Source: Desulfurococcaceae archaeon
GTDB taxonomy: Archaea; Thermoproteota; Thermoprotei_A; Sulfolobales; Desulfurococcaceae
DNA: 64,000 nucleotides
Assembly: GCA_023269825.1 (NCBI GenBank)
Contig: JAGDWI010000001.1
Location: 56,492 to 120,491, forward strand
Direction: 5' to 3'
The notes under the pieces were generated by a model. The model was not told the origin of the DNA. It did not search any database and saw only the letters and a program-made list of their open reading frames with translations. Position numbers and translations under genes: made by a program. This document shows positions 59,301-64,000 of this stretch, piece after piece. Each line of letters opens with the position of its first letter. The stretch's first letter is position 1.

Positions 59301-59672
59301 ACCATAACTTCTACTGAAGGCAGAGAGACTCTAGAGCATGCGGGAAAACTGCTTGGAGAAGCCGAAGAGTTCATTAATAATGGAGAAGTAGAAAGAGCTA
59401 TGCAACTACTCTCTGAGGCGAAATTACTAATGAAGGAGGCTGTAGAGAAATCAACAGTAAAAACGGTTACAGTTACTACGGTGGAAACAGTTACAGTTAC
59501 CATAGAGAGAACAATTGTGTCTACGGAAACTTCTCCGACAACAATAACTTCTCTAATAACAACAATAACAATACAAGGAGGGGTTGTAGAGTGGAGTAGA
59601 ACAATTGCTCTCTCACTAATACTACTCATCGTAGGTATTATAGCGGGGAGACTCTTAGGAAAGAAGAAATAA
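56313..59672 (+). CDS. Very large surface protein: N-terminal signal anchor, glycoside-hydrolase-like ectodomain, helical stalk, Thr/Val-rich linker and C-terminal TM anchor
   Basis: 1119 aa, with a likely start at M20 (56370, MRLKPFRW...). There are many N-x-S/T sequons. The helical region (approximately residues 850-1050) is followed by TVKTVTVTTVETVTVTIERTIVSTETSPTTITSLITTITIQ, a TM helix and GRLLGKKK. The catalytic family is not identifiable by eye. Confidence 0.7.
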   Translation: MRVLEDQGRIYLELLIVKNMRLKPFRWYFHLFATITGKVKVTPIRTCSLLLISMILFPFLLENLGIFPVTVDSASKSSETLPYHSYVEIRGDFIVLGNNYIELTITLGNNTGGGIYSIKDKLRGVDFIRNKQYVNIGLFALEYWYDPIKWYAALLGRNANLEYTYSINETGATLNLYWSNLSSTHEERKFTVNVHVEIYIPSNSSFTYWQIEFENKDNVTIENIHFPTIVGMDQISNEEDGDYLVLPSWSGILFKNPIRNMKKGGSIGADYPSGFLNMQFIAYYSSNPRSGLYLANYDETGAYLKRFSFSSSPIDNNIWLVNTHIISLSGNQSRVSLPYRVVLGIFSGDWYDVAQIYKEWASKQWWARGNLTIGKDTPMWLKKSGVVIDFFTRYWARNSSVWNGPYSNMPPTAEAFRAFYNATPILWWRGWEKNGFGMTPPDYLPPSEGWSSFDSAVQGAHYNGGRVMVPVPSILTYSFNASGWQEAVNYAPRDRWGNLYTQTWYIHNNSGIVVEQVGFIMAPTDFWLNKILNISLELVNHGIDVVQLDGGPPPPFINYHGDLPRGGGDWWAREYMRIYHTVREEVKRANSEATIGSEWLVESFIPYIDLGCDEAIGGLDPTGIASGVFYNSTLNSYIPLWQAVYHEHMLLYSFISIIDGRDSLYYLRNLALSLVWGDLPMIDADPQGTGSPYNLRLYDQKILEYSRRIVEARSKYAYHYLVEGVMLRPPLVTPNPQILIPGASRIPYSGVDVNPFYSDSVFASAWLAPDKSVGVVVTSIAPYKLNITIPLADYNVFQEEDLDVYIVVNGEVYSSFQSRGIPREVELSLAPYDVALIVISPHSSLRARAVEELQEVEYKLRTLNLPRDSTVYNWLNLAIFKFKNNDFEESLNILVKLMENMTTLSLIVEQIHALNTTIIESYANASTPALRGLLDIASNLLEEALLEALNLNFTASEILINASKEKLSGFYALQYLTLEAQNTLNVLLQTLYTLNETITSTEGRETLEHAGKLLGEAEEFINNGEVERAMQLLSEAKLLMKEAVEKSTVKTVTVTTVETVTVTIERTIVSTETSPTTITSLITTITIQGGVVEWSRTIALSLILLIVGIIAGRLLGKKK

Positions 59673-59875
59673 AAGATCCCACACCTGGCTTCATTTTCAT
59701 GTTAAGCGATTTCCTCGCGGACACGTTATCATATGCCTCCTAGAACAAAGTACTGAAAGAGAGAAACCTGAGGGTTTATGAGAGTTTTCATTTTCTTAAA
59801 AGGAGAAATCAACAAGTAGTGAAAAAGAGAAGACTGATCATTAACCCATTGAGGCACGTGGGTATTTAAACCCCG

Positions 59876-60145
59876 CTACTCCAGCTTCCTCAGTATTTCC
59901 TCTGCTGTCTTCTCCTGTGTGTAGGTTAATATGTAGTCTAGGCGTGAGTGCTTGGTTATCTTGGCTGTTATCGAGGGGCTTACTCCCTGGCGGAGCAGGT
60001 AGGTTATGAGTGCATATCTTAGCGAGTGCGTGTTGAAGCCGTAGGTGTACCTAGAGTAGACTTTAAGCCTAGACCCCCAATCTAGCGTCTTCGATGCCAA
60101 AGAGCCTCCCGTAGGCACCCTTCGAGAATGTATAAGAGTGCACAC
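59876..60145 (-). pseudogene. C-terminal fragment of a tyrosine recombinase/integrase (box II region only)
   Basis: NTHSLRYALITYLLRQG (HxxR) and ITKHSRLDYILTYTQ (H...Y) are present. The N-terminal about 100+ aa, including the box I Arg, are missing, and the upstream frames contain stops. Confidence 0.7.
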
Positions 60146-62007: not shown

Positions 62008-62574
62008 ATGAAAAAGGGAAGCCTGAAGCTAGGGGATGTACCACCTTACCCCGCTCTCTTAGAAGCCGTTAAGAAGGCTTGGAGCGATGTCTCCCGGGCT
62101 AGATATGGTGCTCGAGACTTAGCCCTCGCGGCCGCGATGGTCTTTACCGGTTGCAGGATCGGAGAAGTTGTACAACTTAGAAGGCAGGACGTGGATATAA
62201 AGAGAAAGACAGTAGTAATCAGGCAACTCAAGAAGAGAGGAGAGTTCCAGCGAGTGGTGCCAGTGCCGAGCAACCTCTACTGGGAGATAATGACTTACTA
62301 CCTGGAGCGGACAGTCGAGGACAGAGTATTCAATGTATCAGTGAGGCAAGCTAGGAACATAGTTTACTCCTTCACGGAGAAGTACTTGAAGAAGAAGATT
62401 AGACCGCACGCCATTAGACACTCCTACGCTGTAGCCGTGTTAAAGGCCACTAAGAACCTCGAAGCCGTTAGAAGGCTACTAGGCCACAGAGACTACACAA
62501 CAATCAAGATATACCTAGACCTAACACAAGAAGACCTAGAACAAGAGCTTGATAGGCTTTTTAAGGAAATTTAG
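62008..62574 (+). CDS. Short (188 aa) tyrosine recombinase/integrase consisting of the catalytic domain only
   Basis: Box I FTGCRIGEVVQL (Arg), HAIRHSYAVA (HxxR) and LLGHRDYTTIKIYLD (H...Y). There is no N-terminal core-binding domain. Confidence 0.85.
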   Translation: MKKGSLKLGDVPPYPALLEAVKKAWSDVSRARYGARDLALAAAMVFTGCRIGEVVQLRRQDVDIKRKTVVIRQLKKRGEFQRVVPVPSNLYWEIMTYYLERTVEDRVFNVSVRQARNIVYSFTEKYLKKKIRPHAIRHSYAVAVLKATKNLEAVRRLLGHRDYTTIKIYLDLTQEDLEQELDRLFKEI

Positions 62575-62710
62575 TGTAAGTAAACGTAGAATCTAGGTAT
62601 ACCTTGAATTCCATCGTTTTGCTTAGTTTCAAGGTATACTAGTCTAGATAACCCCGGTCTCAAGCCCCCAACTATCTACGCAATGTACAACGTAATATAC
62701 AAAACAAGTT

Positions 62711-63007
62711 CTACGAGGTTGTTTTCTCGATAAGAGAGTATAGTTCCGGGTCTTTCTCTCTAAGTTTCTCCAGGGTTGTTGGTTTAAGCCCCTTGGATTT
62801 AACCCTTTGTAGGTCTCCACGTATAAAGGAGTCATATATTTTCTCGCAGTTATTGTGGTTTCTACAGGAGTTCTCCAGGAACTCTTGTACTACTTGTAGG
62901 GCTTCCTCCTCGCTGAGCCTCTTCACATTCATTAGGTACGCTGAGAGCACGTAGAGTATGAAGCGCTTCCTGCCATCGAGGAGCCTCTTCTCGATAATCT
63001 TCTCCAC
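62711..63007 (-). CDS. Hypothetical small helical protein (weak resemblance to PriL-CTD/PriX-type helical bundles)
   Basis: 98-aa ORF. GRKRFILYVLSAYLMNVKRLSEEEALQVVQEF recalls the R..L.L..FL...G.S.EE. helix pair of primase large-subunit C-terminal domains. This is a recollection, not verified. Confidence 0.45.
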   Translation of the reverse strand: MEKIIEKRLLDGRKRFILYVLSAYLMNVKRLSEEEALQVVQEFLENSCRNHNNCEKIYDSFIRGDLQRVKSKGLKPTTLEKLREKDPELYSLIEKTTS

Positions 63008-63076
63008 TCACTCATATCTCATCGGTCTCCTAACGGCGGCTTGGTCCTCTAAGGCTACTGGTGTAGTGGTTTCAGC

Positions 63077-63203
63077 CTTTCAATTCTTTATATTGAATTC
63101 ATAGGCTTTATTATCATCGACTCCATTACCCAGCCGATTCTTTCAATTCTTTATATTGAATTCTATGCTTGATCCTTTATGTGGGTTTCTTAATATTGGA
63201 TTC
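63077..63203 (-). CRISPR. Cas-less mini-CRISPR array: two perfect 24-bp repeats, one 39-bp spacer, one 16-bp pseudo-spacer and one degenerate repeat
   Basis: CTTTCAATTCTTTATATTGAATTC occurs at 63077-63100 and 63140-63163 and is identical. Its reverse complement GAATTCAATATAAAGAATTGAAAG ends with ATTGAAAG, the conserved archaeal crRNA 5'-handle. Repeat length and the 39-bp spacer fit crenarchaeal arrays. A third copy at 63180-63203 matches 16/24. Confidence 0.6.
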
Positions 63204-63246
63204 GTGTTTCTATAAGTGTGGAGGGGTTTATAAGCTTTATTCATGG

Positions 63247-63291
63247 TGATCATGGGGGTCTGATCAAAAGAGATCATGAGGGGTGATCATG
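63247..63291. repeat. Cluster of GATCATG(R)GGGT / TGATCA motifs
   Basis: tGATCATGGGGGTcTGATCAaaagaGATCATGAGGGGTGATCATG, read directly. GATCATG lies at 63248, 63272 and 63285. The palindromic TGATCA cores lie within a 620-bp ORF-free block. Confidence 0.6.
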
Positions 63292-63630
63292 TTGATTCCC
63301 CGGTTTCTAGGGATTTTTCATGTTGGATCAATTAATGTTTAGTCTTGTATATTGATGTGTATTTAAACCCGTACACTTCTCTCCACTTGATCCTTTCCAC
63401 ACAAGGCTCGATCTTCCCCGTTTTTCAGGGAATTTGTATAATGTAGCGTTTCTCTAGAGTATAAACTAAAAGAATTCTATAAACGCGTCCACATATCATT
63501 GAAGCAATGGACAGGAAGGGGTAAAGAAAAGTGAATAGCTACTTCATCTACACTCTTTGATAGCTTTTTCTGTTCTTCTTCCTTTTTCACCTATATCCTA
63601 GGTTCTTTACTCACAGTCTCACAGAGACTA

Positions 63631-63846: not shown

Positions 63847-64000
63847 TCTCTATTTAAAGCTTATATATTAGACATGAAGATTAGCTAACAATGTTTGTTT
63901 TTGGCTGAGTTTTATGGATAAATCGTTTAATTGCCCGATTAAGCTTCCCGTGATGCTCGCCTTAATAATAACTGCTAATGTCGCCTTAGAGGCTAATGTG

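Follow-up and report, generated by a model that had tools for sequence, protein, structure and literature searches.

The window analysed here is a stretch of 64,000 nucleotides from a contig assigned to a Desulfurococcaceae archaeon of hot-spring origin. Within this 64-kb window, CTTTCAATTCTTTATATTGAATTC is present in exactly two copies, at 63077-63100 and 63140-63163, with 39 nt between them. No further copy is found in the window at up to three mismatches, and dinucleotide shuffles of the window gave no repeat match in any of 100 trials. The two identical 24-bp repeats and 39-bp gap described in an earlier note on this DNA are confirmed as exact and non-random. Two 24-nt repeats around a 39-nt spacer agree with arrays built of 24-25-nt repeats and spacers of about 35-50 nt. 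No Rfam family reaches its gathering score in the window, and the repeat remains below threshold against CRISPR-DR25 (19.3 bits, gathering score 36), which is counted against the reading preferred below. The position of the leader and the ATTGAAAG end of the repeat assign transcription of the array to the minus strand. The minus-strand CRISPR unit proposed in the earlier note is backed by this 3' repeat end and by its crenarchaeal geometry, as well as by the leader homology, the repeat family and the replacement of the spacer among strains. With one spacer between two repeats the array can encode one crRNA, the capacity that had been attributed to it. The architecture is thus a leader of about 300 nt with a TATA-like element, a repeat, one 39-nt spacer and a second repeat, and it is accompanied by the following features:

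59876-60145, minus strand: truncated small tyrosine recombinase (C-terminal 89 aa), 95% identical to residues 110-174 of an intact 174-aa gene in the related contig L007
60074-62725, no strand: strain-variable insert of 2.65 kb, where synteny with L005, L006 and L007 breaks, to resume at 60073; the cargo is different in every relative
62008-62574, plus strand: tyrosine recombinase of 188 aa within the variable insert (Pfam Phage_integrase, 1.8e-20), 92% identical to the integrase that ends the cargo of L036
62711-63007, minus strand: priX, noncatalytic primase subunit of 98 aa (Pfam PriX, 9.4e-33; NCBIfam primase_PriX, 7.5e-37), context lying outside the array
63077-63100, minus strand: distal (terminal) CRISPR repeat, same sequence as the leader-proximal repeat
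63101-63139, minus strand: single 39-nt spacer AATCGGCTGGGTAATGGAGTCGATGATAATAAAGCCTAT, unique within the window
63140-63163, minus strand: leader-proximal CRISPR repeat GAATTCAATATAAAGAATTGAAAG, an exact copy, 2 nt from the canonical GAATCCAATACAAAGAATTGAAAG
63164-63460, minus strand: CRISPR leader of about 300 nt, identified by similarity to the leaders of multi-spacer arrays
63180-63203, minus strand: repeat-like leader motif GAATCCAATATTAAGAAACCCACA, matching the repeat at 16/24 positions and found at the same position in 14/14 aligned leaders reaching that point
63227-63238, minus strand: AAAGCTTATAAA, candidate BRE/TATA promoter element, invariant across the aligned leaders
63241-63291, minus strand: block of CATGATC/TGATCA motifs in the leader, kept across leaders of several genomes

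Chromosomal setting of the array

The same locus was recovered in three assemblies by an exact look-up of the PriX protein (L001, GCA_038727255.1; L002, an 894-kb contig of ENA ERZ1669248; L003, GCA_049702145.1), and orthologous contigs that are 91-98% identical come from four JGI metagenomes (L005, L006, L007 and L036). A 704-aa gene, the leader, the array and priX are syntenic in eight assemblies, as far as the contigs reach (L036 begins inside the leader). The 704-aa protein, encoded at window positions 63892-64000 and continuing in L002:6980-9094, is divergent from the leader and adjoins the array in L001-L003 and L005-L007, all of the relatives whose contigs extend that far. It has no Pfam or NCBIfam family, and neither a cas match nor a strong defence-family match among the PADLOC matches listed. 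Besides this gene, the 10 kb beyond the window edge encode a CitMHS transporter, a dCMP deaminase, IleRS and a glycosyltransferase. The window has the appearance of ordinary chromosome, with genes for Mre11-Rad50-HerA-NurA among others, and contains no tRNA.

On the other side of the array, priX is co-oriented with it and starts 69 nt downstream of the distal repeat. The ancestral priX start is an ATG at 63022, 54 nt downstream of the array, from which the protein reads MRYEW... in L005-L007 and L036. In the window lineage a TGG>TGA change at codon 5 disables this start, and PriX must therefore restart at the GTG at 63007. Neither a T-run nor an AT-rich box lies between the array and priX, which makes read-through from the array into the gene plausible. 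Past the distal repeat, a trailer about 13-16 nt long resembles the trailer of the array in two contigs of related organisms, L004 and L018.

Beyond priX the chromosome is variable. Similarity to the relatives ends 15-25 nt short of the priX stop codon and returns at window position 60073. In place of the variable insert, L007 carries about 160 nt, L005 and L006 carry one extra gene each, not the same gene, and L036 carries different cargo of 3.7 kb with an integrase at its end. This hot spot of strain-specific cargo, which extends from the 3' end of priX to a small tyrosine recombinase, corresponds to L005:4269-5634, L006:3884-5319, L007:5315-5822 and L036:752-4447. In the relatives the variable block closes with an intact tyrosine recombinase of 168-174 aa, the gene that is truncated in the window; the 188-aa recombinase of the window is unrelated to this small one (21% identity). 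Just past the integrase stop codon, at 62592-62639, lies a near-perfect palindrome cluster (TCTAGGTATACCTTGAA ... TTCAAGGTATAC), which may represent recombination sites or a terminator, and a related 13-mer is present within both recombinase genes (60043-60055 and 62507-62519). No CRISPR-like remnant of the array was found beyond the variable insert, at 59640-59900.

A more distant organism shows a different arrangement of the same genes. In L035:2284-4053, priX and a frameshifted small recombinase lie directly downstream of tRNA-Ser(TGA), and this priX locus has a different upstream region with no CRISPR leader and no array. It follows that priX does not generally depend on a leader of this kind. 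No convincing att-type direct repeats were found around either the variable insert or the L035 cassette. Together, priX, the cargo and the small recombinase may form a small integrative cassette, which the array borders and by which it is not carried. The primase subunit PriX is considered essential in Sulfolobus, and its presence in an integrative cassette would be odd given that status.

The earlier note had described the array as embedded in a putative integrated mobile element. This description does not survive the comparison of strains, since the variable segment does not include the array, which keeps its place beside the 704-aa gene in all close relatives. Moreover, a search of 2.9 million viral contigs with the repeat and the spacer gave no match, so that no viral contig is found to carry the repeat.

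Leader, repeat family and linkage to cas genes

Comparison of window positions 63140-63458 with the leaders of long arrays gives 88-92% identity over 176-326 nt. Across all eight leaders found in Thermosphaera sp. Bin P8 and Desulfurococcaceae archaeon RSNS19, identity amounts to 86-92% in alignments of 100-326 nt. The leader of the cas-adjacent arrays in the metagenomic contig L008 and the ENA contig L018 shows 85% identity, and the window array is thus preceded by a leader homologous to other leaders of its repeat family. An alignment of 14 leaders from several genomes resolves the nature of the sequence at 63180-63203, which the earlier note had taken for a third, imperfect repeat copy. The 16/24 match and the 16-nt gap that separates it from the array were described correctly, but the sequence is a conserved leader motif and not a degenerate repeat: the motif GAATCCAATATTAAGAAACCCAC stands exactly 16 nt ahead of the first repeat in every homologous leader examined. 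Further upstream, AAAGCTTATAAA is a plausible BRE/TATA element and a candidate for the array promoter, judged by the archaeal promoter consensus.

The exact repeat is absent from the species-representative genomes and the viral contigs, and related arrays were recovered only by means of a degenerate pattern. The canonical variant GAATCCAATACAAAGAATTGAAAG, 2 nt off the window repeat, is found in Thermosphaera sp. Bin P8 as two arrays, with 23 and 15 repeats, and in Desulfurococcaceae archaeon RSNS19 as one array with 10 repeats, all with unique spacers of 37-52 nt. A further variant forms an array of 36 repeats that adjoins csa3-csa1-cas1-cas2-cas4 in GCA_038894495.1. In L008 and L018 the order is cas2-cas4-ORF-leader-array-ORF-cas7(DevR)-cas5-ORF-cas3, to which a further contig, L027, adds csa3-csa1-cas1 upstream. 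The window repeat itself occurs as the third repeat of the L018 array, which sits between cas2-cas4 and cas7-cas5-cas8-cas3. The repeat family therefore builds multi-spacer arrays that are linked to cas genes elsewhere, and it serves type I-A-like systems (csa3-csa1-cas1-cas2-cas4 plus cas7-cas5-cas8-cas3) in the Desulfurococcaceae.

Linkage of this kind is not the rule, and members of the window's repeat family that possess full leaders regularly lie far away from any cas gene. Since arrays of the family are commonly without adjacent cas genes, the Cas-less surroundings of the window array are not special. For isolated CRISPRs in general, Cas proteins are supplied in trans from a cognate cas locus (Bernheim et al. 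2019, PMC7145637). The window locus resembles such isolated satellite arrays (PMC7145637), including those of Thermosphaera sp. Bin P8 and RSNS19, in combining a leader and repeats that fit a known cas system with the absence of cas neighbours, and in holding fewer spacers than cas-adjacent arrays. It differs from them in having one spacer only, a repeat 2 nt off canonical, and no cognate cas locus in the host DNA read. At the level of sequence, it passes the tests for an isolated satellite CRISPR array.

Other single occurrences of the repeat were also encountered. In one contig from each of two genomes recovered by the degenerate-pattern scan (L012:5242-5340 and L013:231-329), about 100 nt of leader and one canonical repeat, but no spacer, overlap a 113-aa nucleotidyltransferase ORF at its end, and this unit represents either a solitary leader-repeat unit or a truncated array. 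In addition, a single exact 25-nt repeat copy lies within a deacetylase/glycosyltransferase ORF of 633 aa, from what appears to be an unrelated organism (L009:4157-4184, Ga0209541_10005150). It has no leader and no second copy, and may have arisen by chance in a very large AT-rich database.

Spacer alleles and their targets

Comparison among strains shows that the spacer content of this array site turns over. Over the aligned array region, L002 shows no difference from the window. In L001 the flanks are likewise unchanged, but the 39-nt spacer is unrelated and the distal repeat carries one SNP. Between L001 and L002 there are 70 differing positions over 20.3 kb, of which 24 fall in the spacer and none in the 4 kb on either side. 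The spacer swap thus lies inside 9 kb of otherwise identical DNA, which means that at least one change is very recent. The window spacer is replaced by an unrelated spacer of 39-40 nt, in identical or near-identical flanks, in L001, L005, L006, L007 and L036, and this alternative allele differs by a 1-nt indel and one SNP among its five assemblies. There are accordingly two unrelated spacer alleles between conserved repeats and flanks. These can be explained by uptake of a new spacer next to the leader and subsequent loss of the older unit, or by different deletions in an ancestor that had two spacers. At the distal repeat the sister strains read GAATCC... and the window GAATTC, and these variants are compatible with either origin of the alleles.

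The window spacer, AATCGGCTGGGTAATGGAGTCGATGATAATAAAGCCTAT, has no protospacer beyond chance in phage records, plasmid records, viral contigs or the 36 compared loci. The viral contigs were searched with both exact halves of the spacer and with codon-degenerate patterns for its two most plausible reading frames, and the 36 loci were compared at DNA and peptide level. No match was found to csa3, csa1, cas1, cas2, cas4, cas7, cas5, cas8 or cas3 of the compared loci, or to the variable cargo of the relatives. The search of viruses, plasmids and related loci that the earlier note had called for has therefore produced no target for this spacer. A resemblance of IGFIIIDSITQPI to the Cas1 motif GFIHIDRSGKP was dropped, as only 15-18/39 nucleotides agree at the DNA level and the match would not retain the catalytic His.

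The alternative spacer, by contrast with that of the window, matches a cas gene of its own subtype. It is identical at 35/40 positions to cas2 of L018 and L027, in frame and directly after CCT, with two synonymous differences and two that change QV to HF. In Sulfolobus, CCN is the PAM used by subtype I-A for acquisition (10.1101/486738), and on this match the alternative spacer is a true acquired spacer. A crRNA made from this allele would be of the same polarity as the cas2 mRNA, implying that DNA and not RNA is targeted. The exact peptide encoded by the spacer occurs in no Cas2 of the protein collection, and hence the spacer either has drifted or was taken from a somewhat divergent cas2 allele.

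A second case was found in a related array. The leader-proximal spacer of L018 (L018:1854-1893; L008 has the same array) matches csa1 of its own type I-A-like system, at L027:1633-1672, with 37/40 identity, again after CCT. The repeat that follows it in L018 is degenerate (GAACCCAATACAAAGAGAATTGAAAT), and L004 carries the same array as L018 without cas7-cas5-cas8-cas3; this looks like self-targeting followed by decay. The anti-cas2 spacer and the independent anti-csa1 spacer indicate that spacers against cas genes recur in this repeat family.

Host cas genes and interpretation of the array

The earlier observation that there is no cas gene nearby agrees with the present results. None was detected in the window among the PADLOC matches listed for 59 ORFs and the next gene (only generic ATPase matches among the 25 families listed of 89 matched), and none occurs in the 10 kb past the window edge. 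The host counterpart of the L018 cas locus, located through a DUF438 neighbour, contains neither cas genes nor an array; the DUF438 neighbour in L018 is only 69% identical to that of the host, and the L018 lineage therefore represents a different species. Six Cas7/Cas2 homologues were traced to their contigs, all of which belong to assemblies other than the host's, and four more NCBI-sourced homologues have accessions outside the host blocks (MEM0004xxx, MGB98163xx-98167xx). Among the remaining NCBI-sourced Cas7/Cas2 matches, none is labelled like the host MAGs ('MAG: Desulfurococcaceae archaeon'). Altogether, about 95 kb of host DNA were read and no cas gene was found. However, MAGs often miss cas loci, and the absence of host cas genes is therefore weak, only suggestive evidence.

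The region at 63077-63460 on the minus strand is a bona fide minimal chromosomal CRISPR array of the family that serves type I-A-like systems, probably used in trans. Transcription would start at the TATA-like box of the leader and run toward priX. Cleavage of each repeat by a trans-acting Cas6, 8 nt short of the 3' end, would then yield one crRNA, composed of AUUGAAAG, the spacer and a 3' repeat remnant, for use by a type I-A-like effector. The adaptation and interference proteins would likewise have to be provided by other parts of the genome or by incoming elements, since no gene for them lies within at least 74 kb. In origin, the array would be either what is left of a normal satellite array after shrinkage or a young array, and it borders the recombinase-driven variable region without being part of it. 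Besides the low Rfam score, several points are counted against this reading: no host cas gene was found, the processing and use of the crRNA are deduced from sequence, the repeat is 2 nt off canonical, and the window spacer has no target.

Some of the same points would suit an inert orphan remnant, an alternative already raised in the earlier note, which is still viable although it appears considerably less probable. The type I-A cas genes would have been lost, possibly after acquisition of a self-directed anti-cas2 spacer, and the array would have shrunk to one unit by repeat-repeat recombination, persisting either as neutral sequence or because its leader promoter aids transcription of priX. 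The lack of a host cas gene anywhere accessible, the 2-nt drift of the repeat from canonical and the ancestral spacer aimed at cas2 agree with such a history, as do the L018 lineage, in which an anti-csa1 spacer is paired with degenerate repeats, and its variant L004 without interference genes. Likewise, no terminator-like T-run separates the array from priX, and both alleles could be deletion products of an ancestor that had two spacers, with no need for recent adaptation. However, the spacer swap in 9 kb of otherwise identical DNA requires at least one very recent change, and the leader is conserved as well as the leaders of long arrays. Moreover, cas loci are so often missing from MAGs that their absence weighs little, and the priX of L035 has another upstream region with no leader. 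A more specific function is suggested by the residual Cas-less arrays with anti-cas spacers known as CRISPR3/4 (Ypest/I-F type) in E. coli (Touchon and Rocha 2010, PMC2886076), also treated by Almendros et al. 2016 (Nat Microbiol 1:16081; cited in PMC7145637). Under this proposal, a short Cas-less array is kept since its spacer makes an incoming cognate CRISPR-Cas module destroy itself. The locus shares with those arrays its very small size and the lack of detected cas genes. In five independent assemblies (L001, L005, L006, L007 and L036) the sole spacer matches the cas2 of its own subtype with a correct PAM. The present locus differs in being archaeal and type I-A-like, and the match in the sister strains is imperfect (35/40), with the exact peptide in no database Cas2. 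Furthermore, the alternative spacer has itself gained an indel and a SNP, the window allele matches none of the csa3, csa1, cas1, cas2, cas4, cas7, cas5, cas8 and cas3 genes compared, and the absence of host cas genes rests on a partial genome. An archaeal anti-cas array is for these reasons a doubtful explanation of the window locus. It is no easier to credit the fuller version, in which a Cas-less sentinel directed against cas2 in most strains would be the archaeal counterpart of the E. coli anti-cas arrays and the window strain a recent variant with its spacer exchanged. As a still weaker addition, the leader promoter might have been co-opted for priX transcription, which would explain why the locus is retained.

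The reading originally preferred in the earlier note, in which an integrated virus or plasmid carries the mini-array and hijacks host Cas proteins against its competitors, is now very improbable. Its model is provided by the Sulfolobales portogloboviruses SPV1 and SPV2, whose mini-CRISPR arrays have 1-2 spacers and a host-like leader but no cas genes (Medvedeva et al. 2019, PMC6858448). The window array has the same architecture of 1-2 spacers plus a leader without cas genes, and likewise a host-like leader with a candidate promoter, and close relatives differ in the spacer found at this position. In addition, recombinase genes and strain-variable cargo lie within 350 nt, and the priX-recombinase pair adjoins tRNA-Ser in another organism. 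Against this, the array and leader occupy conserved chromosomal surroundings outside the variable segment, with the 704-aa gene beside them in all relatives; the upstream 10 kb hold housekeeping genes (IleRS, dCMP deaminase); and L035 has priX and the recombinase with neither leader nor array. Unlike SPV1 and SPV2, the locus shows no reciprocal targeting, its spacer matching neither the cargo of relatives nor the compared loci, and repeat and spacer are absent from the 2.9 million viral contigs and from phage and plasmid records. The suggestion of a new example of virus-style mini-arrays is likewise set aside, since arrays of the family with full leaders routinely lie far from cas genes. Finally, the two copies could in principle be direct repeats of another kind, such as operator sites or iterons upstream of priX, given that there are only two of them, 69 nt upstream of that gene. 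This can be dismissed almost entirely, as it is already contradicted by the comparative data: the same repeat family builds long arrays with variable spacers, the leader is homologous to array leaders, the spacer is replaced between identical flanks, and the L035 orthologue of priX has no such repeats.

As a minimal chromosomal array probably used in trans, the locus is an ordinary small satellite CRISPR locus, and less weight should be given to the claim that a mobile element carries a Cas-less mini-array here. The finding that retains its value is a one-spacer array with two alleles in otherwise identical DNA, the commoner of which is aimed at cas2. Both this anti-cas2 spacer and the anti-csa1 spacer of the related cas-adjacent array show the correct CCN PAM. 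The position of the array immediately upstream of a primase subunit gene also raises the question of read-through from a CRISPR leader. If the host is truly without cas genes, the idea of CRISPR directed against CRISPR-Cas would extend from enterobacteria to hyperthermophilic archaea, and the locus would offer a simple natural system in which this idea could be tested.
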